DNA of 64,000 bases from an uncultured Planctomycetota bacterium (lineage in GTDB: Bacteria > Planctomycetota > PLA2 > JAEUHO01), in NCBI GenBank assembly GCA_963752285.1, contig CAVVXN010000005.1:1280001-1344000 (forward strand), read 5' to 3'. Below, in pieces: positions 1 to 17,973 of the stretch. The notes beneath the pieces are model-generated. The model saw only the letters and a program-made list of their open reading frames with translations, was not told where the DNA came from and made no database searches. Each line of letters starts with the position of its first letter. Position 1 is the stretch's first letter. Position numbers and translations under genes: made by a program.

Positions 1-2
1 GG

Positions 3-1025
3 TTCACCCGCGCGCTGCTCGCCCACGACCCGCGGACCCTCGTTCGCGTGGACACCGCCCGGTTCGACTACCCCCGGGGACGCGCCCGCCTCTACGGCGA
101 GGCGTTCCTCCGTCGGCTCGGGCCGCCCCGCCCGCGCGACGAGGAGCCCACGGAGACGCATCGCGCGGCGGCGCGCGGCATCCAGGACGCGATCGAGGCC
201 GCGTTCCTCGACGCCGCCCGGGACCTCGTTCTCGAGACGCGGGCCGAGGTGCTCGGCCTCGCGGGGGGCCTGTTCTTGAACTGCGCCCTGAACGGGCATC
301 TCGCGCGCGCACTCGACGTCGAGGTCCGCCCCTTCCCCGTCGCGGGGGACGCCGGCGCGGCCTGGGGCGCGGCGGCCTTCGCGCACCGCGCGCGGACGGG
401 CCGCGAGGCGGCGCCGCTCCGCACCCTCCGCCTCGGCGACGCGATCGACGACCAGCGCGCGCGGGATGCGCTCGGCGTCGCCGCCCCGCGACCCGCGGAC
501 CTCGCGCTCGAGGTGGCGCGACTCGTGGCCGCGGGCCGGCTCGTGGGCGTCGCACGGGGGCGGGCGGAGCTCGGGCCCCGCGCGCTCGGGGGCCGCAGCG
601 TGCTCGCGTCCCCGACGACCACGGCGTCGCGCGACCGACTGAACGCGCACAAGGGCCGCGAGGCCTGGCGCCCGCTGGCGCCCGTCGTGGCGGCGACCGA
701 CCGCGCGCACTTCCGCGGCCTCACGGCGAGCCCGTGGATGATCCTGACGTTCCCGGCGACGGACGAGGGCCGCCGCGCCCTCCCGGGCGCCGTCCACGCG
801 GACGGGACCGCGCGCGTGCAGACGGTGGACGACGCCACGGAACCGTTCCTGGCGGCGGTGCTCCGCCACCTCGCGACGCTCGGCCAGCCGCCCGTGGTGC
901 TCAACACGAGCCTCAACCGCCGCGGCGAGCCGATCGTGAACGACGCGGCGGAGGCGCTCGCGGCGGCGCGCGCGATGCGGCTCGACGCGCTCGCGCTCGG
1001 CGACTACCTCGTCTCGGACCCCTGA
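3..1025 (+). CDS. Carbamoyltransferase (NodU/CmcH/TobZ family), C-terminal part; 5' end lies outside the window
   Basis: Frame is open from base 3. Motifs LAGGLFLNC, PVAGDAGAAWGAA, GRAELGPRALGGRS, KGREAWRPLAP, VHADGTARVQTV and VLNTSLN are typical of O-carbamoyltransferases. Confidence 0.9.
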   Translation, partial: FTRALLAHDPRTLVRVDTARFDYPRGRARLYGEAFLRRLGPPRPRDEEPTETHRAAARGIQDAIEAAFLDAARDLVLETRAEVLGLAGGLFLNCALNGHLARALDVEVRPFPVAGDAGAAWGAAAFAHRARTGREAAPLRTLRLGDAIDDQRARDALGVAAPRPADLALEVARLVAAGRLVGVARGRAELGPRALGGRSVLASPTTTASRDRLNAHKGREAWRPLAPVVAATDRAHFRGLTASPWMILTFPATDEGRRALPGAVHADGTARVQTVDDATEPFLAAVLRHLATLGQPPVVLNTSLNRRGEPIVNDAAEALAAARAMRLDALALGDYLVSDP

Positions 1026-2107
1026 CGGCGGCGCCGGACGTCGCCCCGCCCGCGCACGAGGCTCCCGGGCGCGGAGGCGACGATCGTCGGGTACGCCTCG
1101 CACGGGCTCCAGCAGCCCGGGCAGCGGTCCCGCGCGACGTCGGCGCGCGTCGCCGCGGCCTCGGCGCTTTGCAGGATCTCGTCGAGCGGCCGCTCCAACG
1201 CGTTCCCGAGCCGTCGTCCCCACACCGTGCACGGGTACACGTCGCCGCCTGCCGCCACGAACACGCTGGCGCTGAGGCTCCGACACGGGATCGGGCTCCG
1301 GCCGCTCGCGAGGTACGCAGGTACGAGCCGGAGGTACGTGGCCTCGATCCGGTCCTCGGGGGAGGCGCCCGACGCGCGCGCACGGAGCGCACGCGCGAGC
1401 GCGCGCGACGCGCGCCGCGGAGGCCGTGCGTCGCTGTCGAGGTTCGCGTAGTAGTGCGGGCTCCGAACCCAGACGTTGAGGTGGAGGTCCTTCCATCCCA
1501 ACGCGCGGGCGCCGGCGGGGAGTCGTTCCCCCACGGCCCGGAGGGTCGTCTCGGCGAGGTCTTCGTTCTCCTCCGTGAGCGTCATGCCGAGGTACGCCTC
1601 GACGCCGGGAACCTCGCGCACGGCGGCGAACGTGCGGACGGCACGATCGAACGCGCCCGCGCGACCGCGCACCCGGTCGTGGTGGTCGGGCGGCCCCTCG
1701 ACGCTCACCGTGACGAGGACGCGCGGGATGCCGAGACGGGCCACGCGCCGGACGTCCTCGACGATGCGGTCCGTGCGCTGTCCCGTCGTGGGGAAGTCGA
1801 GGACCGCGAGCCGGGGCAGCGCGCGCGTCGCCGCCTCGGCAATCTCGGGCACGTCGTCGCGGAGGAAGAGCTCGCCGCCGGTCAGGTTGACCCAACGAAG
1901 GGACGGCACGCGCCCGAGCATCCCCTCCACCTCGTCCGGCGTCATCTCGCGCCCCTTCGGCTTCTCCCAGATGCGGCACCCGACGCAGCGGCAGTCGCAA
2001 CGGTCCGTGAGCGCGAGCGTGATCTTGAAGGGCCACGGCGAGCCGAGGCGCGCGGCGAGGATGCGGCCGGCGAGCCCGGCGTAGGCGCGGGCCGAACGGG
2101 CGTTCAC
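1004..2107 (-). CDS. Radical SAM protein with SPASM/twitch-like C-terminal Cys domain
   Basis: CxxxCxxC motif (TDRCDCRCVGC), TGGELF, and C-terminal C...GDVYPC...CPGCWSPCE. GTG start overlaps the upstream stop (GTGA at 2104-2107). Confidence 0.9.
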   Translation of the reverse strand: MNARSARAYAGLAGRILAARLGSPWPFKITLALTDRCDCRCVGCRIWEKPKGREMTPDEVEGMLGRVPSLRWVNLTGGELFLRDDVPEIAEAATRALPRLAVLDFPTTGQRTDRIVEDVRRVARLGIPRVLVTVSVEGPPDHHDRVRGRAGAFDRAVRTFAAVREVPGVEAYLGMTLTEENEDLAETTLRAVGERLPAGARALGWKDLHLNVWVRSPHYYANLDSDARPPRRASRALARALRARASGASPEDRIEATYLRLVPAYLASGRSPIPCRSLSASVFVAAGGDVYPCTVWGRRLGNALERPLDEILQSAEAAATRADVARDRCPGCWSPCEAYPTIVASAPGSLVRGRGDVRRRRQGSETR

Positions 2108-4104
2108 GGCGTCCGCCGGCCGTCCGCGCGCCGCCTCGCGTCCGCGCGCACGGACGCGGCCTCGGCGGTCCGACCGAGCGCGTCGAGGAGGAGCGCGAGG
2201 TTGCCGGCCTCGTTCGCGCCGGCCTCCGGCTCGGACGCGAGCGGGTGGTAGCGCTCGAGCAGGTTCTCCAGCGCTGGACGGTCGGCGCGACGAGGGTCGA
2301 TCCCCACGGCGTCGAGCACGCGCGCGCGTTCAGTGACGCGCGCATCGTAGAGCGCCGGCGCGAGCGTCTTGGGGCTCGGCGCCGTGAGCGCCTGGAGCGC
2401 GAGGTTCAGCCGGACGACGCGGCGACGGAAGGGCGCGCGCGCGAGCACGTCCCGGGCGTCGGCGGGGTCGAACCCGTCGAGCCGTAGGAGCGCGTCGTTC
2501 GCGTCCTCCGCCTCGCCGAGGTCGCCGAGATCCACGGCGGCCTCGATGCGCCGCGCCTGCACCTTCCGGAGCAGCTCCGGCGAGCCGCGTCCGCGGACGA
2601 GGCCGACCCGGGCCCAGGTCGAGAGCGCGGCGCGGTACATCGAGAGCTCGGCCACCCGGGCCTGTCGTCGTCCCTCGCCTCCGATCGCCTCGGTCGCGCT
2701 GGGGTGTGCCATGCGGAGCGCCCGCGCGGACTCGCGGTAGACCTCCGCGAGGGCCACCATCGACTTCCCGTCGATCGGGTTGTCCTCGAGGTACGACCGG
2801 TACGCGATCTCCGCGTCGTGGACCCGGCCCCGCCTCAGGTACTCGTACCCGAGGCCCTCGTACGCGTGCATGTGACTCGGCCGCTCTCGGAGAACGGTCT
2901 CCCAGAGCGTCTGGTCGTTCGACCACGCCTCCGTGCGCGCCCACGTGACGGGCGCCAGGACCGCCACGAGCACGGCGACCGCGGCGACCGCGACGGGACG
3001 GACCCGATCCTTCGCGAAGCGCGCCGCGAGGGCACGGACCGCGGCCGCGACGCCGACCGCGAAGAACACGAGGACGGGGTAGAGGAAGCGCTCCGCCACG
3101 AGGGCCTTCAGCGGCACGATCACGTTGCTGACGGGCACGAGGCAGGCCAGCGAGCCGAGGCACACGAAGCCGAGGACGGACCGCCGTCGGAGTCCGAGGA
3201 GGCCGGCGAGGAGGAGCGTCACGAGGAACCCGCCGCCGAGCACCACGCTCGGGTCGGTCCACCGGCCGGGGACCGGCAGGTGGAGGTCGAACGGGAAGCC
3301 CACGGGCCGGACCAGGTCGTTCGCGTACCACGCGAGGCCCGAGAGCATGCCGCGGGCCGCCGCCGCGCGGCTGCCGCCGGGGAAGTCCGCGACCTGGGCG
3401 AGGCCCGGGATCAACGCGAGGCGCACCGCCAGGTACGCGCCGACGACGACGGCGAGGACGCCGACCCGGATCGCGGTCGTGCGCCCCGGGAGGCGCCGGT
3501 CCGGCGGCAGCGTGACGTCGCGCAGCAGCAGCAGCGCGGGGAGCACGAGCGCCGACTCCTTCGCGAGGAGCGCGAGCCCGCCGAGCAGGGCGCCCCCTAC
3601 GGTCGCGCCGGGCCCCGGCCGTTCGAGGACGAGCAGCGCGCCGAGCATCAGCCCCACCGCCAGGAGGTCGCCGGAGCTGGTGATCCACGCGACGCACTCG
3701 ACGGCCGCCGGGTGGACGGCGAAGACGGCGCCGGCCAGGCCCGCAAAGAGGACGTTCCCGTCGAAGAGGGCCCACGCGAGCCGCACGACGAGCCCGACCA
3801 CGAGGAGGTGGATCAGGAGGTCCACCAGGTGGAACGGCCACGGACGGGAACGCCCGAAGGCGGCGGAGAGCAGCGCGTGGTCGAGCGTGCCGAGCGGGCG
3901 GTAGACGTCCGCTTGGATCCCCTCCCGCGCGGAGAACGTGCCCGGGTCGGTGAGGTACGCGATCGGCGTCACCGGGTCGAGAGACGGGTTCTGCTCGACG
4001 ACGCGGTGGTCGTCGTACACGAAGCCGCCGAAGAGCCCCGGCGCGTGGGCGGCGGCCGCGACCAGCAGGGCGAGCCCCACGGCCCATCGGAACGGACGCT
4101 TCAC
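2104..4104 (-). CDS. TMTC/DUF1736-like GT-C membrane glycosyltransferase (putative protein O-glycosyltransferase) with C-terminal TPR-like region
   Basis: True start is probably GTG 4104 (VKRPFRWAVG). Motifs GGFVYDD, YRPL, FAVHPxxVExVAWI, KES, AERFLY and WSNDQTLW; many TM helices followed by TPR-like helices. Confidence 0.8.
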   Translation of the reverse strand: MKRPFRWAVGLALLVAAAAHAPGLFGGFVYDDHRVVEQNPSLDPVTPIAYLTDPGTFSAREGIQADVYRPLGTLDHALLSAAFGRSRPWPFHLVDLLIHLLVVGLVVRLAWALFDGNVLFAGLAGAVFAVHPAAVECVAWITSSGDLLAVGLMLGALLVLERPGPGATVGGALLGGLALLAKESALVLPALLLLRDVTLPPDRRLPGRTTAIRVGVLAVVVGAYLAVRLALIPGLAQVADFPGGSRAAAARGMLSGLAWYANDLVRPVGFPFDLHLPVPGRWTDPSVVLGGGFLVTLLLAGLLGLRRRSVLGFVCLGSLACLVPVSNVIVPLKALVAERFLYPVLVFFAVGVAAAVRALAARFAKDRVRPVAVAAVAVLVAVLAPVTWARTEAWSNDQTLWETVLRERPSHMHAYEGLGYEYLRRGRVHDAEIAYRSYLEDNPIDGKSMVALAEVYRESARALRMAHPSATEAIGGEGRRQARVAELSMYRAALSTWARVGLVRGRGSPELLRKVQARRIEAAVDLGDLGEAEDANDALLRLDGFDPADARDVLARAPFRRRVVRLNLALQALTAPSPKTLAPALYDARVTERARVLDAVGIDPRRADRPALENLLERYHPLASEPEAGANEAGNLALLLDALGRTAEAASVRADARRRADGRRTP

Positions 4105-5255
4105 GGGCGGGCCTCGGACCGGGCCGCGGGCTGGAGCAGCGCCCGGAGCGCCGCACACACCTCTCCCGTCGGGATGGAGGCCATGCAGGTGTGGATCCGG
4201 CACCGGCTCGAGCGGTAGTTGACCGCCGTGAGACACGGGCTGCACGGTAGCGCGCGGTAGAAGGACCGGGATCCCGGCGCGAGGGGGCCGTAGAGCGCCG
4301 GCGTGTTCGGGCCGTAGATCGCGAGCGTCGGGGTGCCCGCGGCCGACGCGAGGTGGACCGGCCCGGTGTCGTTCGAGACGAGGGCGCGGGCGCCCGCGAC
4401 GACGGCGACGAGCTCGTCGAGCGAGAGGAGACCGGCGAGCGAGGCCGCGCCGCCGCCGACCGCCCGCGCGACGCGCTCCGCGAGGTCGCGCTCCGGCGCG
4501 CCGCCCGTCACGACCACGCCGAGGCCGAGCTCCAAGGCCGTCCGCCCCACCGCGGCGAACCCTGCCTCCGACCAGCGCCGCCCCGGGAAGTTGTCGCCGC
4601 TCCCCGGGTGGAGGACCACGTACGGGACCTCGGGGAGCCGGGTCCGCGCGCGCTCCCGCGCGCCGGCGTCCGGCCACAACGCGCCGGGGACGTACGGACC
4701 CGGCGGCACGCCGGCCGCCTCCGCCAGGTCGCGGAACGAGCGCGCGGCGTGCACACCGGGTCGGATGGGGACGAGGACGGTGTAGAGGCCGTCGCGTCCC
4801 GCGGCGCCCGACGCGAACCCGATGCGCTGTCGGGCGCCGCCGAGCCGCGCGAGGAGGGCCCCCGCGCGCGAGAACTGCTCGAAGTCGAGCGCGAGGTCGG
4901 GCGGACGGCGCCGGAGCGCGCGCACGGCCGCGAGCAGGTCCTCGGCGAGGACGACGAGACCCCGCGGCCGCACGAGGAGCACGTGGTCGGCGAGGTCCTC
5001 GACGAGCGGTCGGTTGGGCGCGAGCGTGGCCACCGTGAACGAGGCCCGGGGCCACCGTTCGCGAAGGTCGCGGAGCACCGGGCGGAGGAGCGACCAGTTG
5101 CCGAGCCCCCAGAACTTCACCACCAGCACCCGGCGTACCGCGGTCACGGGCTCCGGCGGCCGGAGCGCCTCTCCGAGGCGGTCGGCCGCGCCCACCACGC
5201 CGCCGACGAGGCTGCCCAAGCGGCGGTCCACGAGCTTGGCCAGCGAGAGGTTCAC
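4101..5255 (-). CDS. Glycosyltransferase family 9 (ADP-heptose:LPS heptosyltransferase-like)
   Basis: GTG start 5255 overlaps the upstream stop. Motifs VLVVKFWGLGN, VVLHPGSG..RRWS, VSNDTGPVHLASAAGTPTLAIYGP and C-terminal LPCSPC..C..C. Confidence 0.9.
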   Translation of the reverse strand: MNLSLAKLVDRRLGSLVGGVVGAADRLGEALRPPEPVTAVRRVLVVKFWGLGNWSLLRPVLRDLRERWPRASFTVATLAPNRPLVEDLADHVLLVRPRGLVVLAEDLLAAVRALRRRPPDLALDFEQFSRAGALLARLGGARQRIGFASGAAGRDGLYTVLVPIRPGVHAARSFRDLAEAAGVPPGPYVPGALWPDAGARERARTRLPEVPYVVLHPGSGDNFPGRRWSEAGFAAVGRTALELGLGVVVTGGAPERDLAERVARAVGGGAASLAGLLSLDELVAVVAGARALVSNDTGPVHLASAAGTPTLAIYGPNTPALYGPLAPGSRSFYRALPCSPCLTAVNYRSSRCRIHTCMASIPTGEVCAALRALLQPAARSEARP

Positions 5256-6343
5256 GCGGTCCGCGTCGCGCGGTGCGCGCCCTGGGGCAGGATGAGGTTC
5301 ATCTCGGTGTGGCAGTTCCAGAGGCACGCGCGGCAGTCGTGGAGAGCGTCGCGCGCCCGCGCGTAGGCGGCGCTCCTCCAGAGCCGGGCGAGCGGGACCC
5401 GCCCGACGGGCTGGCGCGTCTCCATGCGCGGGAAACACGCGAAGACGTCGCCGTAGCAGTCCACGACCACGCTGGTGTAGGGCGCGTAGCAGTCGAGCGG
5501 GCTGGGTGTCCCCCGGAGCGCCGCCGGCACGAGGTCGAGGTACGACGGGCTGTTGTCGAGCGCGCCCGCCTCCCGGAGCCGGGCGAGGGTCGCGGAGAGC
5601 CGGGCGAGGTCCGCGGGCGCGACCGGCGCCTCGCCCTGGCCGAAGTCGTGCACGGGGATCACGCCCACCCGGTCGGCCCCGGCCGCGAGGGCCACCCGGG
5701 CGACGTCCTCGAGCGACGTGAGGTTCTTCGAGGTGAGGACCGTCACCGCGGTCAACCGAGGCCGCCGCGCCGCGCCGCGCGCGCGCGCGAGCACAGAGAG
5801 CGCGCGACACGCGTCGTCGAACGCTCCGGCGCGACCGCGCGCGGCGTCGTGCGTCGCGGCCGTCGCGCCGTCGAGGGAGACGTTCACCGACCGGACGCCC
5901 GTGCCGAGCAGCCCGCGCGCGCGGCGCTCCACGTCGAAGCCGTCCGTGTTCAGGTGCGCGTGCAGGCCGAGGCTCGTCGCGTAGGCGAGCAGGTCCTCGA
6001 GGTCGCGACGGAGCATCGGCTCGCCGCCCGTCACGCCGACCCCGGCGGTCCCGATCGCCTTCATGTCGCGCAGCACGGCACGAAGCGCTCGGGTGTCGAG
6101 CTCGCGGATCCCCCGCCGGCGGTTCTCGAGCGCGCGATAGGGCAGGTCACAGACCCGGCACCTCAGGTTGCACCGGTACGTCACGAGGAGCGTACCGAGC
6201 GTGGGCCCCACCAGGGGCCGGCGCGCGCGGCGCGCCAGCGCGGAGCCCACCCAGCGCACGCCGAGGTCGAGGAGCCCCGCCCAGTCGCCGCCGCGAACGC
6301 GGTCGAGGACCACGTCCTCGTACTGGCGCCGGGGGCGCATCAC
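5252..6343 (-). CDS. Radical SAM protein with SPASM/twitch-like domain
   Basis: VTYRCNLRCRVC, TGGEPMLR, VSLDG and CYAP...GDVFAC...CRACLWNC. Start is GTG 6343 or ATG 6340. Confidence 0.9.
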   Translation of the reverse strand: MMRPRRQYEDVVLDRVRGGDWAGLLDLGVRWVGSALARRARRPLVGPTLGTLLVTYRCNLRCRVCDLPYRALENRRRGIRELDTRALRAVLRDMKAIGTAGVGVTGGEPMLRRDLEDLLAYATSLGLHAHLNTDGFDVERRARGLLGTGVRSVNVSLDGATAATHDAARGRAGAFDDACRALSVLARARGAARRPRLTAVTVLTSKNLTSLEDVARVALAAGADRVGVIPVHDFGQGEAPVAPADLARLSATLARLREAGALDNSPSYLDLVPAALRGTPSPLDCYAPYTSVVVDCYGDVFACFPRMETRQPVGRVPLARLWRSAAYARARDALHDCRACLWNCHTEMNLILPQGAHRATRTA

Positions 6344-7431
6344 GCCGTGGCCCGCCGGCTGCGACCCGAGGGCACGTCCGGCGACGCCTCGGCGGGCGAC
6401 GAGAATCGCGGGGCGGCGGCGTCGGTGGGGTACTCGGTGCAGCGCGCGCAGATCGGCGGGAGGTCGCCGGACACGTGCCTCTGCCGCAGCCGCCGCATCG
6501 CGGGGCCGTTCCAGATCTCACGGAGCGACGCCCGGCGGGCGTCCCCCACCGCCAGCTCGCCGTCGTGGTCCACGCAGCACGCGGTGACGCGTCCGTCCTG
6601 CAGCACGACGGGGCCGCCGCGCCACGGCTCACGGCACCGCGTCCGGCGCGTGCCGTGCGTGAGCACCGGGATGCGCTGTACGCGATCGACGACCCCGGTG
6701 AAGCGCGCCGCGAACCGGGAGGCCGCCGCTTCCGTCTCGGGCGCCACGACCATCGACACGTCCACGGCCGTCCGCGCGCCGCGGGCGTCTCGAGCGGCGA
6801 GCAAGCGTTCGATCCCCCGCTCGACGCGTTCGAGCGAGACGCCGCGGACGGCTTCGTGCGTGCGCGCGTCTCCGTCCACGGAGACCGTGACCCGGTCCAC
6901 CCCCGCGTCCAACAGCTCCTTCACGCGACGGTCGTCGAGGAGCGTGCCGTTCGTCGTCACGAACGTCCGCGCGCCCGCGCGGCGCGCGCGGAGGGCGAGC
7001 TCGCCGAAGCGCGGATGGAGGAGGGGCTCGCCCCACTGGAAGAGCAGGACGAAGTCGAGCGGCCGAGCGAGGCGCAACACGCGGTCGAAGAGGCTCGGGT
7101 CCATGAGCCCCCGGGGGCGCGTCATCCGGCCGTTTCCCGTGGGACAGAACGTGCACTTCAGGTTGCAGCGGTTCGTCACCTCGAGGTTCGCCGACACGAG
7201 GAACGGCGCACGGGTCCGACCGAGCCGGTACGCGACCTCGTTGGCGACGCCCGCGACGACCGTCCGGAGGCTTCGGTAGCGGATCGCGATCACCACGGCG
7301 AGCTCGGGGCGCCTCAGATAGAGGCGCGCGACGATCTCGCCGAGCCAGCGCGAGGGCCCGCGCACGTCGGCCGCCCGGGACCTCGGCCCGCTCGGGCCCG
7401 CGCGTCTGCGGGGGTGGCCTCGATCGCTCAC
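6340..7431 (-). CDS. Radical SAM/SPASM (twitch) protein, BtrN-like layout
   Basis: NLEVTNRCNLKCTFC, WGEPLLHP, TTNGTLL and CREPW...DGRVTACCVD...CARC. Start uncertain; GTG 7431 chosen. Confidence 0.88.
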   Translation of the reverse strand: MSDRGHPRRRAGPSGPRSRAADVRGPSRWLGEIVARLYLRRPELAVVIAIRYRSLRTVVAGVANEVAYRLGRTRAPFLVSANLEVTNRCNLKCTFCPTGNGRMTRPRGLMDPSLFDRVLRLARPLDFVLLFQWGEPLLHPRFGELALRARRAGARTFVTTNGTLLDDRRVKELLDAGVDRVTVSVDGDARTHEAVRGVSLERVERGIERLLAARDARGARTAVDVSMVVAPETEAAASRFAARFTGVVDRVQRIPVLTHGTRRTRCREPWRGGPVVLQDGRVTACCVDHDGELAVGDARRASLREIWNGPAMRRLRQRHVSGDLPPICARCTEYPTDAAAPRFSSPAEASPDVPSGRSRRATA

Positions 7432-7476
7432 GGTGTGCCTCGGCGTCCCGCCCGCCCGGGATGGCGCCCGACGAGA

Positions 7477-7514
7477 CGACGGGCGCCCCCCGGCCTTCCG
7501 CGGGGCGCCCGTCG
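7477..7514 (-). terminator. GC-rich hairpin between lipoprotein gene and radical SAM operon (terminator/attenuator-like)
   Basis: 13-bp inverted repeat CGACGGGCGCCCC (7477-7489) / GGGGCGCCCGTCG (7502-7514); no U-tract. Confidence 0.45.
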
Positions 7515-7576
7515 GGGATCGGACGTCGCGCGCCGAGGCGGGCACGGCCCGGCTCCGGCGCGCGCGCGGTCCAGGC

Positions 7577-10564
7577 TCAGCGCACGAACTGGATCGTGAA
7601 GTCGGTGATCGCCGGGAGCGGCTCGGTGGCCTGGGGGTACCCCGACTTCACCTGCATGCGCCAGCGGTACCGGATGTACCTCGACCCGTCGACGTCGGAG
7701 ATGTTCGAGCTCCACTGCGTCAGGCCGACGCCCGTCGCAGGGATCCCGCCCGATCCCGGGACCGGCGAGAGGGACGCCGCGCCCTGGAACTCCACCACCA
7801 CCAGGTAGTCGGTCCCCAAGGTGACGCCGTCCGCCGTCAGATTGTCGAAGTCCGAGCTCCAGAACGGCGTGTCGAACACCGCGGTGTTCGTGAACATGTC
7901 GTACCACTGGCTGACGCCGGCCGAGTTCTCGTTGATGGTCGGCTTGTACTCGAGCTGCGACTCGGGCGGGCTGATGGACGCTCCCGCGTCCACGTTCACG
8001 TTGTTCGCCGCGCCCAGGTACGCCAGGACGACCTTCCCGGTCGAGCCGTTCCCGCCTACGAGGTCCGCGTCGCCTGCGTGGCCGCCGAGCCCGCCCTCTG
8101 CGGAGATCACGGCGGTGCTCATCACGGTCACGCCCTGGGCGCCGAACACGAATACGCCGCCGCCGGCGCCGCCGCCACCCGGTCCGCCCCGTCCCGAGGG
8201 AAGGGCGCCCGGAGTGACGCCGGTGATGCGGTCCGCGTTCTCGTCGGTCCCGCCGGGCGCCCCGTCGGCGCCGAGGTCCACGACCTGGTCCGCGACCGCG
8301 AACGTGCTGCCACCGTTACCGCCGTCGGCGACGATCGAGCCGCCGATCGACACCTGGCCCGCGGCCAGGATCCAGAGGCCGCCGCCGCCGCCGCCGCCAC
8401 CGCCGCCGCCCGCGTCGCCGTTGTTGATGCTGGAGTCGGAATTGGTGTCCTCGCAGCCGCCGCCGCCGCCGCCCGGCCCGCCGGACACGTCGGTGTTCGG
8501 CGAGTACGTGCGGTCGGGCGCGAAACGAGACAGGTCACGGGAGAACGTCGCGTCCCCGATCAGGCTGCCGCCGTTCCCGACGCCGTTCCCGTTCGCGTCG
8601 GTACCCGCCGCCCCGGCCGCGGCGAAACCACCGCCGCCGCCGCCCGCCTGCCCGGGCGCCATCCCCTGGTCGCCGCCGGCGCCGCCGTTCACGCTGTCCG
8701 CGCCGAAGACCAGCTCGCGGGGCGCACCGGGGTTCCCGATGCCCTGCGAGTTCTGGACGCGAAGCGGGTCCCCGCCCGCGCCTCCGGCGCCGCCGCCCGC
8801 GCCCGGCATCCCACCCGTGCCAGCCGGGCTCGCGGCGCCCGGGACCGTGTAGCGCGTCGAGCCGTCGGTGTCGAGGCCGGGGGCGCCGTCGTGCCCGATC
8901 AGGTCGATCGTGCCGTCGAGGTGCACGTCGCCGCGACAGAGGATCAGGAGCGGGCGGCTGCCCGCCACGCCCAAGGAGTCGCCCGCGCGCAGGTTGAAGG
9001 ACGTGAACTCGTAGATCCCGTCCCCGTTCACGGAGTTCCCCGGCACGGGGTCGGTCCCGAGGCTCAGGTTCGCGCCGCCGCCGCCGCTGTCGAACGCGCC
9101 GTCCGCGCCCGTTCCGGCCCACGGCTTGTAGACCGCCTTCAGACGCCCGGTCCCCGTGTCGACGTCGGTGTTGACGGAGAGGCTCGAGAGACCGAGGAAC
9201 CGGAATCCGCCGTTCCAGTTCATCGTGGTGGACTGGCCCACGCCCGTCGCGTTGTAGAGGAGGGTGAACTCGGGCGCGGAGACGTTCGTGCCGGGGATCG
9301 GCTCGCGGAGGTCGCCGGTCCCGGGGTTCGTCTCCTCGAACACGCCGGGCTCGTTCGTCGAGCTCAGCGCGTCGCCCCACTCGTTCAGGTTCGTGTTGAA
9401 CCCCTCGTTGAACGACTGCGCGGTGCCCGGCACCTTCAGCGTGACGAAGTAGTAGCGGTAGCCGGGCGGGACCGCGCCGGACTGGTTCACGTTCGCTTCG
9501 ATCGCCTCGTACCCGCCGATCGAAGGGCTCGGCCGGTCGTCGATCCGGAGCGGGAAGCCGGGCAGGTCGGTGACGTCCGGGGTGATGTTCAGCATGTAGG
9601 TGCCCTGCGGCACGCCGCCGACCGGGATCCCGAACTCGTCCTCGTTCGCCGCCGACAGGATGATCGCCGCGTCGGTGAGCGACTGATTGACGACCGGCTT
9701 GTTCGTCCGAATCGGCTCCGGCGGGATCGGCACCCTCTCGGTGTCGCCGACGCGCCAGAGCTGGACGTTCAGGCCGAGCTTCGTCGTGGGCACCCAGGGC
9801 TCGACCGTGAGCGGGTCCAGCGGCTCGTTGAAGGCGAAGATGATCGCCGGGAGGTTGATCGCGCCGGGGGTCACGGCGGAGGGTACGCCCACGGCCTGCT
9901 GGTTGTGGGTGGGCGTGCACTGGTCGAGGATCACCTGCGGCGAACCCTGGTTCCTCAGGCAGAGGAGCTTCGCCCCGATGCCCGACCCGAATTGCACACT
10001 CCCGTCGAAGAGGGTGTTGTCGGGGTTCTGCAGGCAGCCCTCGTCGTCGCTACGCCCGCCCTGGCTCGGCGCCAGGCCGTGGTGGATCGGCCGGCGGGGC
10101 TCGACGAACGTCGGGAACGGCGTGGTGGTGAACTGGTAGCCCTGCGCGTCCGTCAGGGGCGACCCCGAGATCGACACGATGGTCGAGGGCGCGGGGAAGA
10201 CGGCGAAGTCGATGCTGTACGTGACCCCCGGCCCGTACCCGGCGTCGCTGTAGCTCGAGACCGTCGGGTTGCGCGGGATCAGGCCGACGAGGTTCCCGTC
10301 CACGACCGGCGCCTCGAAGTAGGGCCCGACGGCGCCCGTGACGCGCAGCGTGTCGGGCGTGATGCTCGACTGGGAGACGAAGGACGAGAACGTGAACACG
10401 CACGGGTCGTCGAGGGCGATGCCGGCGACGTTCGGCTTGTTGAAGCCGAGGAGCACCAGGTTCCCGCCCGAGCCCCCGCTGCCGCTCCCGCCCCCACCGC
10501 AGGAGGTGGCGCCGAGGGAGACCGCGAGGACGGCGGCGACCAGAAAGACACAAGAACGTCGCAT
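7577..10564 (-). CDS. Large secreted lipoprotein (995 aa): Ig-like (Big_5-like) domains, glycine-rich region and conserved C-terminal domain
   Basis: Signal peptide II ...VSLGATS-C-GGGG; Ig-like motifs FAFNEPLDP and DVTDLPGFPL; polyglycine stretches; RBS GAAGGAG. Confidence 0.8.
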   Translation of the reverse strand: MRRSCVFLVAAVLAVSLGATSCGGGGSGSGGSGGNLVLLGFNKPNVAGIALDDPCVFTFSSFVSQSSITPDTLRVTGAVGPYFEAPVVDGNLVGLIPRNPTVSSYSDAGYGPGVTYSIDFAVFPAPSTIVSISGSPLTDAQGYQFTTTPFPTFVEPRRPIHHGLAPSQGGRSDDEGCLQNPDNTLFDGSVQFGSGIGAKLLCLRNQGSPQVILDQCTPTHNQQAVGVPSAVTPGAINLPAIIFAFNEPLDPLTVEPWVPTTKLGLNVQLWRVGDTERVPIPPEPIRTNKPVVNQSLTDAAIILSAANEDEFGIPVGGVPQGTYMLNITPDVTDLPGFPLRIDDRPSPSIGGYEAIEANVNQSGAVPPGYRYYFVTLKVPGTAQSFNEGFNTNLNEWGDALSSTNEPGVFEETNPGTGDLREPIPGTNVSAPEFTLLYNATGVGQSTTMNWNGGFRFLGLSSLSVNTDVDTGTGRLKAVYKPWAGTGADGAFDSGGGGANLSLGTDPVPGNSVNGDGIYEFTSFNLRAGDSLGVAGSRPLLILCRGDVHLDGTIDLIGHDGAPGLDTDGSTRYTVPGAASPAGTGGMPGAGGGAGGAGGDPLRVQNSQGIGNPGAPRELVFGADSVNGGAGGDQGMAPGQAGGGGGGFAAAGAAGTDANGNGVGNGGSLIGDATFSRDLSRFAPDRTYSPNTDVSGGPGGGGGGCEDTNSDSSINNGDAGGGGGGGGGGGLWILAAGQVSIGGSIVADGGNGGSTFAVADQVVDLGADGAPGGTDENADRITGVTPGALPSGRGGPGGGGAGGGVFVFGAQGVTVMSTAVISAEGGLGGHAGDADLVGGNGSTGKVVLAYLGAANNVNVDAGASISPPESQLEYKPTINENSAGVSQWYDMFTNTAVFDTPFWSSDFDNLTADGVTLGTDYLVVVEFQGAASLSPVPGSGGIPATGVGLTQWSSNISDVDGSRYIRYRWRMQVKSGYPQATEPLPAITDFTIQFVR

Positions 10565-10651
10565 GGAGGCTCCTTCGCTACCTGACGGCCCCGTCCTCCG
10601 GGCCCGTCGTGGCGTCCCGGAGTGCGTGGAGGAGGTCGTCCTGCCGCATCG

Positions 10652-12844
10652 TCAGTCCGCGTTCACCACCGGCAGCGTCACGTCGTACAGGCGCGCCTTC
10701 GTCTGCGTGAGGAGGTTCGAGACCATCCGAATGCGCCAGCGGATGCACTTGTACCCGTCACAGTCGTTCACGTTCTGCGTCCAGCCCGTGTAGGCCTGCG
10801 AGGTGTTGATCGTGCGGCGGTCGGGCCCCACGGCCTGCGCTCCCTGGTACTCGACGACCACCTGTGCGCCGCCCGACTGCACGGAGGGCGTCAGCTGGAT
10901 CGGCCGGTAGTCGGAGCTCGCCCCGAAGGTCGTCTGGACGGAGGGCGAGGTCGCGCCCGTGTCCGTGTAGAAGAGCGTCTGCGCGTTGCTGACCCGCTTC
11001 GTGATCGTGAAGACCGTGTCCGTTACGCTCGGCTCCGGGTTCTGGATGCTGAACCCGTTCGACGCCGGGTCGGGCGAGTCGGCTTCGTACGTGCTGTACA
11101 TGCGCCGGTACGGGAACCCGGGGATCAGGAAGCCCGAGCACGGGTACGTCGCGCCGTACCAGCCGCGGATCTGCTGCCAGGTGTCCCCCTCCTTCGAGCT
11201 GACGTCGAAGATGAACACCTTGTCGCCCTGGATGATCGCGTCGCCGTCGTCCCACTCGAAGAACGAGTTGAAGGACGGCCAGTTCACGAAGCCCGTGTAG
11301 GCGAAGAGGGGGTCGTTCCAGTTGTTGGAGCAGACGAAGGGCCGGCCCGCGTAGGGGTTCGGGTACGGCGTGGGGTTCGTGACGGTGTTGCCCACGTTCG
11401 CCTTCTGGTTCACGCGGTACTCGCCCGTGTACAGGATGGTCGGGTTCCCCTCGTAGTTCCCGGAGAACTGTGGCGAGAGGCTGAGCGAGGCGTTCTTCTG
11501 GTACCCGCAGCGGATCGTGACCCCCGGGTAGATCGCCGCGAACGTCGCGTTGCTGTCGGGCCCCCACCCGGCCGAGGTGATCGCGCCGTCGGGCCCCATC
11601 TCGGTGTCGGTGAACGCCCACATCACGCGCCGCCCGTCGGAGGTCGGCGGGGTGATGCCCGAGACGTACTGGTTGAGGGCCGCGCCGATGAGCGGGGACG
11701 TGAACGCGGCGTACTGACCGAAGTCGTCCGAGGTCGCGCCGTCGCCCTGGAACGAGAACCCGAAGATCCGGGCGTCGCGGCTCGAGATCGGCTGGCCCTG
11801 CAGCACGCCGTCCTCGGTCGTCCCCCAGTCGGCCTCGTTGTTCACGAAGTCGATGTTCCCGGAGGAGGTGAAGTCCTCCTCGAGGACCACGCCCGTCTCG
11901 ATGCCTGCGCCGTCGCAGGTGTACGGGCCGAACGTGCGCGGGTTGACCAGCAGGTTCCCGGCGAGGTCCTTCAAGCCCTGGAACACCTGGGACGCGAAGA
12001 CGTACTTCTTGTCGCCGAACGAGAACGTGGGCGTGAAGAAGTACGTGACGTCCGCGGCGTCGTGCGTGAAGTACCCCGCCACCTTCTGCCCGACACCCGA
12101 ACCGTTCACCAGGCCGTTGTCGATGTTGATCTGCTCGGACGAGAGGTAGCGCACGTCGATCGTGGTCAGCGAGTCGGGTCCGTTGGCCCCGCCGAGGATG
12201 AAGGACGACGGGTCCATCGGCTCGTTGAACTCGAACGCCATCACCGCGTTGCCCGGGAACTGGCCGGTCAGCGGGTTCACTGCGAAGCGGTCCGGGATCG
12301 AGTAGACACGGACCACCTGCGGGGGCACGAGTTCGCGGAGGTACCCGTCCGAGGTCACGAACGTGGTGAAGAAGCTGCTCTGGCACGGGTCGTCGTCGAG
12401 GTTCTTGATCACGTCCAGCGACTCGTCGATGCTCGGGATGTACACGCTGTACTGCGTGGCCGGCTCGAAGCCGAACGGGTTCGGCTGGCCCTGTGCGGTC
12501 ACCGTCGGGTCGAAGAGGATGACGTTCCCGTCCACGGCGAACGAGCCCTTCGGGACCGACTGCCCACCCGAGCCGTAGCGGACCTGGAACGACTGCGTGT
12601 TCACCGAGGCGGCGTAGACCTTCTCCGCCATCACGGCCTTCAGCTCGATGTTCCGCGGCGCGTTCGTGGTCCCCGTGGGCGCGGTCGGGTTGAGTGCGCG
12701 GTCCACGAAGAGGAACTGCAGCAGGACCATGGGCTTCGCGGCGTATCCGCCGCCCCCGCCGCAGGACGTGGTGAGTGTGGCCAGCGAAAGCACGGCCGCG
12801 AACAGGATGAGAGCCCCCAGACGGGAGATCGCGTGGCGCAGCAT
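10652..12844 (-). CDS. Large secreted lipoprotein (730 aa) with Ig-like (Big_5-like) domains, paralog of the downstream gene
   Basis: ATG 12844 with RBS GAGAGGA; MLRHAISR...LTTS-C-GGGGG lipobox; FEFNEPMDP and GLKDLAGNLL. Confidence 0.8.
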   Translation of the reverse strand: MLRHAISRLGALILFAAVLSLATLTTSCGGGGGYAAKPMVLLQFLFVDRALNPTAPTGTTNAPRNIELKAVMAEKVYAASVNTQSFQVRYGSGGQSVPKGSFAVDGNVILFDPTVTAQGQPNPFGFEPATQYSVYIPSIDESLDVIKNLDDDPCQSSFFTTFVTSDGYLRELVPPQVVRVYSIPDRFAVNPLTGQFPGNAVMAFEFNEPMDPSSFILGGANGPDSLTTIDVRYLSSEQINIDNGLVNGSGVGQKVAGYFTHDAADVTYFFTPTFSFGDKKYVFASQVFQGLKDLAGNLLVNPRTFGPYTCDGAGIETGVVLEEDFTSSGNIDFVNNEADWGTTEDGVLQGQPISSRDARIFGFSFQGDGATSDDFGQYAAFTSPLIGAALNQYVSGITPPTSDGRRVMWAFTDTEMGPDGAITSAGWGPDSNATFAAIYPGVTIRCGYQKNASLSLSPQFSGNYEGNPTILYTGEYRVNQKANVGNTVTNPTPYPNPYAGRPFVCSNNWNDPLFAYTGFVNWPSFNSFFEWDDGDAIIQGDKVFIFDVSSKEGDTWQQIRGWYGATYPCSGFLIPGFPYRRMYSTYEADSPDPASNGFSIQNPEPSVTDTVFTITKRVSNAQTLFYTDTGATSPSVQTTFGASSDYRPIQLTPSVQSGGAQVVVEYQGAQAVGPDRRTINTSQAYTGWTQNVNDCDGYKCIRWRIRMVSNLLTQTKARLYDVTLPVVNAD

Positions 12845-13271: not shown

Positions 13272-14030
13272 TCAGAGGACGTCCCGCCCGTCCACCACGG
13301 CCTGGGCCGCCGCGGCGCCGAGGAGGCCGAGCCCGGGGTGGCGCCGGCTGGGGAGCGTGAGCCGGGGCGCCAGGTGGCCCGCGTCGCTCCCGGTCAGGAA
13401 GATCTGGGCGCCCGCGGGGGCGCCGGCTCCCACCAGCCGCTCCACGGCGCCGACCGCGCCCTCGAGGACCCCGGCGCGGATCGCGTCCTCGGTGTTCCGG
13501 GCCGGGAAGCCCGCCTCGCCGTCCAGGCTCACGACGGGAAGGCGCGCCGTCCCCGCGGCCAGGGCCCGGACCGAGAGCGAGAGGCCGGGGAGGATCGCGC
13601 CCCCGAGGAGCCGGCCCTCCGCGTCGGCGACGTCCACGGTGAGGGCGGTGCCGCACGATACGACCACCACGGGCGACCGGGCGAGCACCGCGGCGCCGAA
13701 CACCTGCGTCCGCCGGTCGATCCCCACGCGCTCGGGACGCTCCACGAGGGCCGCAGGGAGGCCGGGGTGGTCGGGCCCGACGGTCGCGACGGACCCGAGC
13801 CGCAGCTTCTCGACCTCCCAGGCGAGGTCCTTCGCCTTCCCGGGGTCGCTGCCATAGACGACGAACGAGCCCGCGCCACCGGCGAGCAGCGCCGTGGCCT
13901 CGCCCCGCACGCCGCGGCCGCTCACGTCGGCGAGGCGCCGGGGCCCCGCGACGTCCTCGCCGCGGACGGCTCCGATCTTGGCGCCGGAGTTCCCGACGTC
14001 GATCACGACGTAGAGGTGGCCCTCCGCCAT
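13272..14030 (-). CDS. coaX: Type III pantothenate kinase
   Basis: VIDVGNS, GIDR, SCGTALTVD, GGAILPG and FLTG; ATG 14030 with GGGAGG RBS. Confidence 0.92.
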   Translation of the reverse strand: MAEGHLYVVIDVGNSGAKIGAVRGEDVAGPRRLADVSGRGVRGEATALLAGGAGSFVVYGSDPGKAKDLAWEVEKLRLGSVATVGPDHPGLPAALVERPERVGIDRRTQVFGAAVLARSPVVVVSCGTALTVDVADAEGRLLGGAILPGLSLSVRALAAGTARLPVVSLDGEAGFPARNTEDAIRAGVLEGAVGAVERLVGAGAPAGAQIFLTGSDAGHLAPRLTLPSRRHPGLGLLGAAAAQAVVDGRDVL

Positions 14031-14154
14031 GGTCCTCCCTCGGCACACCCTGCGGACCGCCTCGGCGGCCGCGAGCGTCCGGGGGTCCATGCTACTCGGC
14101 GTCCCCCTGGAGGGGAGCCGTGCGTCGCGGGCCCGAGGCGCGGCGCCGACGCGG

Positions 14155-15378
14155 CTAGCCGCCGCCCCCCGTGTTCAGGTACCGCGCGTTCCGCCGGATC
14201 TTGGGATCCCGCGGGTCCACCACGTACGTGATGCGGGTGCCGTGACGGTCGATCACGACCGTCACGCTGGCGACGTCCGGCTTGGACTTGACCATGCCCT
14301 GGACGATGTTCACCGCGTCGCTCCGCGTGGCCACCGGCTGGCCGTCGATCGAGACGAGGACGTCGCCCCGGCGGATGTCGAACTTGGAGGCGGGGCTGTC
14401 GGGCGTCATGCCCGTGATCTGCAGCCCAACGACCCGGCCCTGCGGGTCCCGGTACGTCTGCGTGGTCACCGTGTTCGCGATCGAGTCGGCGTCGTGCTGC
14501 CGGAAGTAGTCGTACGAGCTGTCGTCGTCGAAGCTGACCCGCCTCTCGGTGCGGCTCGGCTCCTCGATCTTGAGCTTCACGTCCTCGAACTTCACCGGCG
14601 CGGACGGGTCGGCCGACGAGGGGGCCGGCTCGCCCACCGTGGACGCGACCGCCCCGCCGCCGTTCCCGGCCCCGGGGGTCGGCGCCGCGGCGGCCACCCG
14701 GACCTTGCCCTGGAGCTCGTCGGGGAGCGCGAGCGCCGGCTTGTGGTCGTAGGCGTATACGGCCTGCTTCTCGGGCGGCTTGTCCGGGTCGGGGTAGACG
14801 TCGTAGACGATCTCGTAGACGTCGTCTCCACGCGCCCGGATGTCCACGAGCTTGAGCGACCCCGGCTCGGTCTTCTTGGCCCGGATCCAGTCGCCCGGAT
14901 GGAACTCGGCGATCGTCTCCTGGCCGCCGCCGGTGAACTTCCACTGCAGCACCGAGAGGCGGGCCACCTCGCCCTCCTTCTCGGGCGGGATGTACGCGAT
15001 GCTGTTCACGGCGCCCAGCTTCTCGAGCGCGCTCACGACCGGCGCTTTCGTGGCCTCCGGCTTCGGCGCCTCGGGCGGCGCCGGGGGGAGGCCCCCGGAG
15101 TAGAGCCACCACCACCGCTCGTTCCCCCGGCGGAACTGCGGCTGGTCGATCTCGTCGAGCTCCTTCTGGGAGACCGGCGGCTTCAGGGCGTTCTGGTTGG
15201 CCGCGGGCTTCTGGGTGAACTGTTCGATCGCCTTCTGGGGGAAGGCCGGGGCCAGGAAGGAGGGGTCGCCGATCGCCTTCCGCACGTCCAGGAAGTACCA
15301 GGCGCCCACACCGAGCAGTCCGACGCCGAGCAGGAAGTCCAGAAACCAGAGCAGGCGTCGCTGGCCGTGCGCCCTCAT
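14155..15378 (-). CDS. Membrane-anchored PDZ-domain protein, GspC-like
   Basis: N-terminal TM helix, Pro/Ala linker and C-terminal PDZ (VVGLQITGMTPDSPASKFDIRRGDVLVSIDGQPV); follows pilT. Confidence 0.65.
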   Translation of the reverse strand: MRAHGQRRLLWFLDFLLGVGLLGVGAWYFLDVRKAIGDPSFLAPAFPQKAIEQFTQKPAANQNALKPPVSQKELDEIDQPQFRRGNERWWWLYSGGLPPAPPEAPKPEATKAPVVSALEKLGAVNSIAYIPPEKEGEVARLSVLQWKFTGGGQETIAEFHPGDWIRAKKTEPGSLKLVDIRARGDDVYEIVYDVYPDPDKPPEKQAVYAYDHKPALALPDELQGKVRVAAAAPTPGAGNGGGAVASTVGEPAPSSADPSAPVKFEDVKLKIEEPSRTERRVSFDDDSSYDYFRQHDADSIANTVTTQTYRDPQGRVVGLQITGMTPDSPASKFDIRRGDVLVSIDGQPVATRSDAVNIVQGMVKSKPDVASVTVVIDRHGTRITYVVDPRDPKIRRNARYLNTGGGG

Positions 15379-15413
15379 GGGAGCTCCTCGCGGTGCGGAT
15401 CGCTCCCCTTAGA

Positions 15414-16580
15414 CTAGCGGCCGAAGCGGGTGATTCCCGGAATCTCGCGGCCGGAAGACGGCCTCGGCGCGGCCTCGGCGTACGTCGCCTCGATCGTGCT
15501 CACGCCCTTCGTGATGCCCCTCAGGGCGAGCTTCAGCTCGTCCGGGCTGTCGGCGGCCGCCATCGCGTCCTCGACATCGATGAGCCCGTCCCGGACCAAT
15601 CCGACCAGCGACTGGTTGAAGGTCTGGGTCCCGTAGTACTCGTACCCCTCCTCGAGCGCCTCGGGCAGCTCGCGGGTCCGACCCTCGACGATCATCTCCT
15701 TCACCGTCGGCGTGCCGATCAGGACCTCGACGGCCGGTACGCGACCCGCGGTCGTGCGGCGCGTGATCAAGCGCTGGCTCACGACACCCTCGAGTACGAG
15801 GCCGAGCTGGAGGCGGACGGTCGCGTGCTGGTACGGGGGGAAGAAGGAGATGATCCGCTCCACGGTCTGGACGGCGTTCACCGTGTGCAGGGTGGCCAGC
15901 ACCAGGTGTCCCGTCTCGGCGGCCATGAGTGCCGCGGAGACGGTCTCGAGGTCCCGCATCTCCCCCACCAGGATGACGTCGGGCGTCTGCCGGACCACGG
16001 CCTTCAGCGCCGTGTGGTAGTCCTCGGTGTCGATCCCGATCTCGCGCTGCGTGATCACGCTGCGCTCGTCCTTGAAGACGAACTCGATCGGGTCCTCGAT
16101 GGTGACGACGTGCCGCTGCGTGCAGCGGTTCACGTGGGCGATCATGGCGGCGAGGCTCGTGCTCTTGCCCGAACCCGCGACGCCGGTCACCAAGACCAGC
16201 CCGCGCTGGAGCAGCGCGAGCCGTTGGAGCGGACCCGCGGGGAGGTGGAGGTCCTCCATGCTCGGCACGCTCTCTTTGACGTACCGGAACACGAAGGCCA
16301 TCCGCCGGCGTTGCTGGAGCACGTTCGTGCGGAACCGGCCCACGCCCGGCACGACGATCGCCGTGTCCTTCTCGTGCACGTTCCTGAACGACTGGATGTC
16401 CTCGGGCTCGAGGATCGACTCGAGCAGGTTCTGGGCCTGCTCCTCGGTGAAGAGGTCGTCCGAGAGGAACCGCACCTTGCCCTCCACGCGGACCGCGGGG
16501 CGGTGCCCCGTGCGGAGGATCAGGTCGGAGGCCTGCTCCTTCACCATCTCGCGGAAGTAGGCGAGGACTTCGTCGTTCAT
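15414..16580 (-). CDS. pilT: PilT/PilU family type IV pilus retraction ATPase
   Basis: ASDL, RFRTN, Walker A GVAGSGKST, TIEDPIEF, Walker B VILVGEMRD and His box TGHLVLATLHT. Confidence 0.9.
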   Translation of the reverse strand: MNDEVLAYFREMVKEQASDLILRTGHRPAVRVEGKVRFLSDDLFTEEQAQNLLESILEPEDIQSFRNVHEKDTAIVVPGVGRFRTNVLQQRRRMAFVFRYVKESVPSMEDLHLPAGPLQRLALLQRGLVLVTGVAGSGKSTSLAAMIAHVNRCTQRHVVTIEDPIEFVFKDERSVITQREIGIDTEDYHTALKAVVRQTPDVILVGEMRDLETVSAALMAAETGHLVLATLHTVNAVQTVERIISFFPPYQHATVRLQLGLVLEGVVSQRLITRRTTAGRVPAVEVLIGTPTVKEMIVEGRTRELPEALEEGYEYYGTQTFNQSLVGLVRDGLIDVEDAMAAADSPDELKLALRGITKGVSTIEATYAEAAPRPSSGREIPGITRFGR

Positions 16581-17665: not shown

Positions 17666-17708
17666 GGCGGGGCGCGACGGGCGGGGTGGCCCGGCGCGTC
17701 CTTCGCCG

Positions 17709-17960
17709 TCACGCCCGGACGGCGGGACGGACGTGGACGGTGCGGTTCGGACGGTACTCCACCACGCCCTCGGTGAGCGCGAAGAGGGTGAAGTCCCGAC
17801 CCATGCCGACGTTGTGTCCGGGACGAAGACGCGACCCCACCTGACGCACCAGGATGTTTCCCGCAGCGACCCGTTCACCGGCGAAGCGCTTCACGCCGCG
17901 GTACTGCGGGTTGCTGTCGCGGCCGTTGCGCGTCGAGCCCTGGCCCTTCTTGTGTGCCAT
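17709..17960 (-). CDS. rpmA: 50S ribosomal protein L27
   Basis: [24 protein letters not shown]. Confidence 0.98.
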
Positions 17961-17973
17961 GTCGCGCTCCCCT

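Follow-up and report, generated by a model that had tools for sequence, protein, structure and literature searches.

A six-gene module, encoding three twitch-like radical SAM enzymes (rSAM1, rSAM2 and rSAM3), a family 9 glycosyltransferase (GT9), a TMTC-type GT-C glycosyltransferase with tetratricopeptide repeats (TPRs) and a carbamoyltransferase, is the real unit of a locus at the start of a 64,000-nucleotide stretch of DNA from an uncultured Planctomycetota bacterium (the window; C5:1280001–1344000 of source genome G000, an assembly of 4.64 Mb with 73% GC). The six enzymes very probably constitute one pathway, because they recur together in 14 Planctomycetota families, the carbamoyltransferase gene is inside the operon in five loci of four families, and the genes have been lost jointly in one clade with decay of the GT-C catalytic motifs. 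This agrees with an initial annotation of the window, which had placed the enzymes in a single pathway. On the basis of gene content, co-occurrence, co-loss, predicted folds and motif states, we propose that the module builds a modified lipid-linked sugar and transfers it to Ser/Thr of exported proteins, with the adjacent lipoprotein LipoA (Ser431) as a possible acceptor; the chance that this proposal is right is put at about one half. Below, G, f, g and L followed by a number denote genomes, families, genera and fetched loci.

The six-gene module and its joint loss

The seven genes first annotated as a same-strand series are all on the minus strand: LipoA (12844–10652; 730 aa lipoprotein, lipobox Cys28), LipoB (10564–7577; 995 aa lipoprotein, lipobox Cys22), rSAM1 (7431–6340; start uncertain, 7431 or 7365), rSAM2 (6343–5252), GT9 (5255–4101), the GT-C enzyme with membrane helices and a TPR domain (4104–2104) and rSAM3 (2107–1004). 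As was noted then, all four internal junctions of the enzyme block are stop/start overlaps, each with GTGA (6343–6340, 5255–5252, 4104–4101 and 2107–2104), and a carbamoyltransferase gene of the NodU/CmcH family converges on the block end. This gene (plus strand; 560 aa in full length) starts 657 bases before the window, and its 3' part (1..1025) overlaps the end of rSAM3 by 22 bases. LipoB and rSAM1 are separated by a gap of 145 bases without overlap. Pfam matches are Radical_SAM plus SPASM in three genes and Glyco_transf_9 in one, with weak TPR in the membrane protein and weak Big_5 in LipoA; the locus proteins reach no NCBIfam family cut-off. A promoter and terminator scan gave 0 promoter-like and 2 terminator-like sites, the same as in shuffled sequence.

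In the order to which G000 belongs (two families), 20 loci were fetched around the GT-C orthologue. GT9 adjoins GT-C in 19 of these, and a LipoA or LipoB gene is directly upstream in all 17 of the 19 that reach far enough. The gene order is far from chance; the relatives are kin and not independent, and locus counts show breadth rather than serve as a statistical test. A GT9 profile matches 68 of 301 genomes of the phylum at E 1e-60, a sister subfamily included. Outside the order, the module is present in 24 of 40 loci fetched from this list of matches, in 11 further families and three gene orders; 2 of the 24 are truncated. The carbamoyltransferase gene is within the operon in five (f42, f64, f68 and f79), the lipoprotein pair is upstream in seven (f34, f53 and f89), and DUF1573 Ig-like genes are downstream, with no pair nearby, in ten (f19, f23, f60 and f87). 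The pair flanks the module in 5 families. The neighbourhood conservation for which a search had been suggested is found near G000, but at a distance extends to the lipoproteins in only a minority of loci. GT9 and GT-C are the constant core, and rSAM2, rSAM1 and the carbamoyltransferase are absent from some loci. In a split copy in G037 (f4), GT9 adjoins GT-C and rSAM1 is on a different contig. In family f2, a CitMHS/TrkA-C transporter gene adjoins the carbamoyltransferase gene in five loci (L034:15133–16944, L035, L037, L038 and L039), and L037 has an additional fourth radical SAM gene.

A GT9 orthologue is present in 32 of the 35 other genomes of the order and is missing in G015, G016 and G021, which are 90–96% complete and have no PF13186 match. 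These three and G319 (75% complete; GT9 checked at the locus only) have no carbamoyltransferase orthologue, the best match having 37–43% identity compared with 64% in G006. In G015, all six genes are gone at the locus, and the flanking gene from the far side of the module comes directly after LipoB. In G016, G021 and G319, a GT-C frame is kept after LipoB, in which DD is changed to GD and D146 and K182 are gone; AERF is gone in both full-length module-less copies. The GT-C/TPR frames of genus g16 without catalytic motifs are at L040:6274–8247 (minus), L211:8891–10936 (plus) and L124:13926–14903 (plus). A rough dN/dS of 0.28 over 632 codons (GT-C of G016 and G319) indicates apparent purifying selection and therefore suggests a retained natural pseudoenzyme, which would have a non-catalytic role; module-bearing pairs were excluded from this estimate as non-coding frame extensions were included in them. 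These genomes, although they represent a single loss, show that catalysis by GT-C relies on the remaining five genes, and that LipoA and LipoB can do without the module.

Enzymes of the module

GT9 matches PF01075 (E 5e-31), has an N-terminal extension and is below NCBIfam cut-offs. Its invariant Asn53 occupies the position at which GT9s of solved structure have the Asp of the G-D motif. This Asp (D13) is the proposed base of all heptosyltransferases, and D13A causes a 4688-fold loss, as described in parts of the published report (PMC5713226). In the module GT9, the donor-side DTG..H motif is kept (D296, G298 and H301 are invariant). Near-invariance of the donor-side motifs and of HPGSGDNF..RRW speaks against a dead enzyme. 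The distinct GT9 sequences from the fetched loci have Asn at the base position in 64 cases, Ser/Ala/Cys in 24 and Asp/Glu in 81. In a tree built from a subsample of 104 sequences, the Asn type falls into a single clade (34 tips, support 0.988), which takes in every module GT9 among those listed and three Omnitrophota copies. A GT-C-family Pfam match is located within 5 kb in 13 of 29 base-less GT9 loci outside the module, compared with 1 of 35 bacterial Asp/Glu loci. These matches are at E 0.02 or better, several being under the curated cut-off, and both counts are lower bounds because only hydropathy-selected frames were scanned. The single Asp/Glu-type locus, L095, had initially been set aside for its TMTC-like neighbour.

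gmhA was not found at E 1e-20 in any of five genomes (G000, G006, G015, G016 and G142), in a search that found the E. coli control; three of the five are module carriers (G000, G006 and G142; 89–93% complete). lpxB is present in all five, and G000 has three Asp-type GT9s elsewhere. Because of the presence of lpxB and Asp-type GT9s and the lack of a gmhA match, the lipopolysaccharide (LPS) core may contain a sugar other than heptose, or its heptose may come from a different route. A housekeeping LPS-core heptosyltransferase identity of the module GT9 was rejected, as the Asp13 equivalent is absent and the carriers tested gave no gmhA match. With an anionic phosphate as acceptor, a catalytic base is not required. 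Given this, the base loss and the gmhA result, it is probable that GT9 attaches a sugar other than heptose to polyprenyl phosphate, and it would be the polyprenyl-phosphate sugar synthase for GT-C.

Related GT9s occur in other settings. Two of three archaeal relatives, in which Asp/Glu is kept, adjoin STT3: in loci titled Woesearchaeota/Nanoarchaeota (L073:1813–6952 and L079:4784–18551), GT9 is beside STT3/AglB, GT2 and DUF2304-type genes. L079 also has SIS, cytidylyltransferase, PfkB and second GT9 genes, suggesting heptose in N-glycans, and its STT3 is fused to an FKBP domain. In Omnitrophota (L068, L072 and L076), Asn-type GT9 is accompanied by an rSAM3 homologue and PMT_2-type GT-Cs, with SGNH/GDSL proteins in two loci; these loci are a reduced version of the module outside Planctomycetota. 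A sister Ser-type clade (L161, L166, L167, L169, L170 and L171) has a different recurring cassette, with PMT_2-type GT-Cs, other radical SAM genes (one or two per locus, B12-binding in some cases) and, in some loci, an amidophosphoribosyltransferase-like gene and GT4. In G000, a second base-less GT9, of the Ser type (L178; C5:277462–278694), is directly after a PMT-family GT-C gene.

In the GT-C model (pLDDT 91.9), a TPR-like C-terminus follows 11 membrane helices, the seventh of which is succeeded by a loop helix. AglB, Pmt2, STT3B, ArnT, Pmt4 and PglB are effectively tied as fold matches (Z 18–20; rmsd 4.4–5.2 over 322–346 residues). The comparison of predicted structure with TMTC that had been suggested thus bears out the GT-C fold, the 11 helices and the TPRs, but no TMTC or TMEM260 chain is in the fold-match lists, which does not exclude them; a PDB sequence search with the GT-C profile gave TPR proteins only. 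TMTC motifs include DD, an EL2 Asp, an EL3 Lys, the AER arginine and YRP, according to sections of a published study (PMC7801869). Compared by motif and order, without an aligned human sequence, conserved GT-C residues match these at D31–D32 (invariant, the acidic motif of the first external loop), R69–P70, D146, K182–E183 and R339; the HK of SHKSYRP is absent from GT-C. Among 102 GT-C homologues, 3 are named protein O-mannosyl-transferase by JGI. By its model and motifs, GT-C appears to have the TMTC layout but is not filed as a GT105 member. In the closest relative, G001, the GT-C orthologue is in two overlapping frames (L025:11995–13988), owing to an assembly error or a frameshift. G000 has two further TMTC-like genes, at L139 (C5:1209535–1217196) and L140 (C5:1422722–1424971), one of which is near asparagine-synthase-like, methyltransferase and GT2 genes.

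All three radical SAM proteins match PF04055 and PF13186 over the cut-off. Each has a CxxxCxxC motif and five conserved C-terminal Cys residues, fewer than a two-cluster SPASM domain needs, a pattern in keeping with one putative auxiliary cluster each. rSAM1, with a BtrN-like twitch domain, has conserved C89/93/96 and C266, C285, C286, C328 and C331; the auxiliary sets are C285, C303, C337, C340 and C344 in rSAM2, and C275, C293, C329, C332 and C336 in rSAM3. The best PDB sequence matches are BlsE and BtrN for rSAM1 and BlsE for rSAM2, covering the core barrel only (E 1e-10 to 1e-15) and below family cut-offs; rSAM3 has a weak match to HpnH (E 2e-5), far under the cut-off. Sugar oxidation, epimerisation and decarboxylation are known from twitch radical SAM enzymes, and NodU/TobZ enzymes carbamoylate sugars. 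The carbamoyltransferase matches PF16861 (E 4e-50) and, as a full gene, PF02543 over the cut-off; the partial sequence is far below the NodU equivalog cut-off. A role in maturation of ribosomally synthesised and post-translationally modified peptides was rejected, as no family cut-off was reached; precursor peptides were not searched for.

From family chemistry, the three radical SAM enzymes would oxidise, epimerise or rearrange a nucleotide sugar or its lipid-linked form in the cytoplasm, and the carbamoyltransferase would add an O-carbamoyl group. GT9, which has no general base for a hydroxyl acceptor, would then load the sugar onto polyprenyl phosphate and thereby replace the usual GT2 donor synthase. 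After flipping, GT-C would transfer the sugar in the periplasm, where its TPRs might select folded beta-sandwich proteins by analogy with TMTC and TMEM260.

The acceptor and competing explanations

A protein is the best reading of the acceptor, with about an even chance of being correct; lipid A or a glycolipid comes next, as a possible but less probable acceptor. A protein is favoured because TMTC1-4 and TMEM260 modify strands of Ig-like domains, as described in portions of a published report (PMC11292533). The initial annotation had pointed to the lipoprotein pair and called both Ser/Thr/Gly-rich. Ser/Thr richness is confirmed for LipoA (16.6%, 98.5th percentile) and LipoB (15.1%, 97.6th percentile) among 1875 proteins of >=300 aa from rough gene calls of our own; Gly richness holds for LipoB (18.1%) but not for LipoA (9.7%, 62nd percentile). 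The LipoA model (pLDDT 85.7) has two CopC/Big_5-type Ig domains (aa 37–167 and 174–311) and two jelly-roll-like domains, with middling fold matches (Z 7–10.6). Its Ig domains match SbsC (Z 10.6, rmsd 2.7, 100 residues), tied with Ig domains of alpha-2-macroglobulin and amylase. A PDB sequence search gave nothing significant for LipoA; an Atlas search gave no usable match for LipoA and only unnamed Planctomycetota Big_5 clusters for LipoB, which belongs to a Planctomycetota Big_5 family. Across the 301 genomes, matches that cover the LipoA C-terminal domains are found only in module-carrying families.

LipoA Ser431 (codon 11552..11554, minus strand), in the motif WGP-D/S/E-S-N/D, tracks the module. 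It is Ser in 36 of 36 module carriers and N, L, L and F in the four module-less genomes. Across module carriers (36 LipoA and 32 LipoB orthologues), 125 columns are >=94% conserved, and Ser431 is the only one of them changed non-conservatively in all four. As 13 of the 125 are Ser/Thr, the chance of a single loss falling on Ser/Thr is about 10%. Ser431 is kept in seven further best-hit LipoA copies of the sister class, and in 8 of 8 metagenomic LipoA orthologues, module status being visible for only 2 of them. At the family level, LipoA shows an excess of Ser/Thr loss with p 0.037 when a signal-peptide Thr is included. Ser431 may carry a glycan or bind one, and LipoA is a candidate acceptor or glycan-binding partner; the chance that it is functionally tied to the module is perhaps even. 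LipoB appears to be tied by synteny only, and its sequence gives no sign of module dependence. A predicted complex of GT-C aa 1–660 with LipoA aa 318–640 scored 0.00, which decides neither way.

Several results weigh against protein glycosylation with LipoA as the acceptor. LipoA and LipoB stay intact in the four module-less genomes, which form one clade in LipoA trees and therefore represent one loss event; a second independent loss was not found, GT9 being present in 15 of 15 sister-class genomes. Ser431 is absent from 9 of 28 extra or unlinked LipoA-family copies and kept in 19 (module status unchecked for the two copies from G320). Without the signal-peptide Thr, LipoA has Ser/Thr losses of 2/20 compared with 5/185 (p 0.14), or 4/43 compared with 9/279 (p 0.08); in LipoB it is 0/16, and the Ser/Thr content of neither lipoprotein drops in module-less genomes. 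Ser431 is in a turn of an inserted jelly-roll-like domain, and not on an Ig strand like the TMTC sites given in parts of PMC11292533. Five module families (f23, f60, f68, f79 and f87) have no LipoA match at E 1e-22, and looser searches in four of them gave fragments only in three and none in G130; 15 of the 24 distant module loci have neighbours other than the pair. Of the 7 distant loci that have the pair, 6 also have the pantothenate kinase gene upstream, and synteny of LipoA/LipoB with the module is no stronger than that of this kinase; in G037, a LipoA/LipoB-like cluster adjoins the kinase gene without the enzymes (L135). For GT-C, its TMTC likeness stands in fold and motifs but the DUF1736 part of the first assignment does not: no PF08409/DUF1736 match was found at E 10 in the genome or in protein scans, and no DW motif is in the GT-C alignment. 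The module has no flippase gene. Overall, the pair as acceptor is weakly supported, and a glycan-binding role fits the Ser431 pattern equally.

Other proteins are candidates as alternative acceptors. A DUF1573/HYDIN Ig-like protein and a c554-type multiheme protein are encoded 2–5 kb past the carbamoyltransferase gene (L001:12498–15351; window −5505 to −2649), and DUF1573/c554-type homologues are directly after the module in families without the lipoprotein pair. The DUF1573 sequences were too few for a Ser/Thr conservation test.

Alternatively, the module might decorate lipid A, the LPS core or another envelope glycolipid in the manner of ArnC/ArnT, with LipoA binding the product via its jelly-roll domain and Ser431 or being a mere neighbour; we consider this possible, at clearly less than even chance. 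ArnT (Z 19.0) ties with the protein transferases, so that the fold does not separate protein from lipid acceptors, and lpxB is present in every one of the five genomes tested. The Ser431 domain resembles lectin-like or CBM-like folds (middling Z 7–9), the family-conserved LipoA residues W409, Y583, T585 and R617 also change in the module-less clade, and the sister GT9s have PMT_2 and GT87 enzymes at their loci. Against a lipid acceptor, GT-C has the TMTC layout, TPR domain and RP/KE/AERF motifs, the characterised members of this type serving protein domains in parts of PMC11292533, and Ser431 is conserved beyond the family, unlike W409, Y583 and R617. A hopanoid or other small lipid headgroup is an improbable substrate: G000 has a squalene-hopene cyclase over the cut-off, and rSAM3 has its faint likeness to HpnH, but a separate radical SAM gene is directly after the cyclase gene (C1:464214) and no hopanoid gene is in the mapped module loci. 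To our knowledge, the hopanoid headgroup enzymes described so far include GT2 but not GT-C members, which also counts against this substrate.

With either acceptor, GT9 might instead extend a lipid-linked oligosaccharide, base-free, or be a non-catalytic scaffold, the GT-C donor coming from a GT2 elsewhere in the genome. This explanation, which concerns the second step only, is tentative and would fit the archaeal loci L073 and L079, where the nearest relatives with Asp/Glu are beside STT3 and GT2, the GT2 gene near another TMTC paralogue of G000, and our literature search, in which no report of polyprenyl phosphate glycosylation by a GT9 came up. The nearly invariant donor-side motifs speak against it, as do the lack of GT2 inside the operon in mapped gene lists and the observation that GT-C linkage follows base loss. 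That the genes are passengers of conserved synteny with unrelated tasks is very improbable. Housekeeping neighbours (pantothenate kinase, amidohydrolase, PilT and SpoIIE) are also syntenic, but the module holds together through three gene orders and different flanks, its deletion in G015 is clean, and decay of the catalytic motifs of GT-C coincides precisely with absence of the five other genes. This explanation is largely refuted for the six enzymes and plausible for LipoB. Returning to protein glycosylation, its boldest form would be a bacterial TMTC-type, domain-selective protein O-glycosylation, with the donor made by a base-less GT9, a sugar reshaped by radical SAM enzymes and carbamoylated, LipoA Ser431 as the site and the g16 pseudoenzyme as a natural control; as a whole, this combination is rather unlikely to hold.

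Related systems and flanking genes

The logic of the module would be that of known lipid-linked GT-C pathways, with new parts. GT-C resembles TMTC1-4 (CAZy GT105) and TMEM260 (GT117) in the GT-C fold, 11 membrane helices with TPRs and the DD, (Y)RP, EL2 Asp, KE and AER motifs, as far as these are given in parts of PMC7801869; beta-sandwich acceptors, proposed here by analogy, would be a further likeness (parts of PMC7801869 and PMC11292533). Unlike them, it is bacterial, has no DUF1736/DW match, has as its linked partners not a Dol-P-Man synthase but GT9, three radical SAM enzymes and a carbamoyltransferase, and would probably use a donor other than mannose; its candidate site is in a turn and not on an Ig strand. 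With ArnC/ArnT it would share a cytoplasmic lipid-phosphate sugar synthase, a modified sugar and a periplasmic GT-C, ArnT being a tied top fold match, but the synthase position is occupied by a GT-B enzyme without the base, not by GT2, GT-C has TPRs, and the modifying enzymes are radical SAM enzymes and a carbamoyltransferase. GT9 shares the family domain and donor motif of WaaC/WaaF/WaaQ and differs in its Asn for the catalytic Asp, N-terminal extension, scores below NCBIfam cut-offs and the missing gmhA match. rSAM1 and rSAM2 have BtrN and BlsE as best PDB sequence matches but in the core barrel only, and the carbamoyltransferase has the Pfam domains of NodU/TobZ/CmcH; these known enzymes act in antibiotic or Nod-factor synthesis, not with GT-C.

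Complex glycans on surface proteins exist in anammox Planctomycetota, in S-layer glycosylation; the available part of that report does not identify the transferases (bioRxiv 10.1101/2020.12.03.409086). An S-layer nature of LipoA would be speculative, its match to SbsC being tied with those to alpha-2-macroglobulin and amylase.

The initial annotation did not recognise the combination as a described system, and no description of the six-gene module was found in the literature searched, which included few subscription papers and no supplements and does not establish absence from print. Prokaryotic TMTC homologues have been noted in a published study (PMC7801869), and no paper assigning them a pathway was found in the same literature. 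For such a homologue, the module offers a donor pathway together with candidates for both acceptor and residue, which makes the question directly testable. The base-less GT9 clade accompanies GT-C enzymes in Planctomycetota, Omnitrophota and other phyla, from which we predict that lipid-linked sugar donors can be made by a second route; the presence of three linked radical SAM enzymes suggests that the envelope sugar chemistry is unusual. If the acceptor is a protein, the system would be a bacterial counterpart of the animal cadherin-glycosylating system; if it is lipid A or a glycolipid, the module would still stand for an envelope modification, as yet uncharacterised, in an important group of uncultured bacteria.

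Upstream of LipoA, at 13272–29432 of the window, Pfam matches indicate a type III pantothenate kinase, a PDZ protein and a PilT-like ATPase. Farther upstream are genes that we take to encode Obg, L27, L21, an RNase E/G-like protein and pilus or secretion assembly proteins. The 13272–29432 flank is syntenic in relatives.

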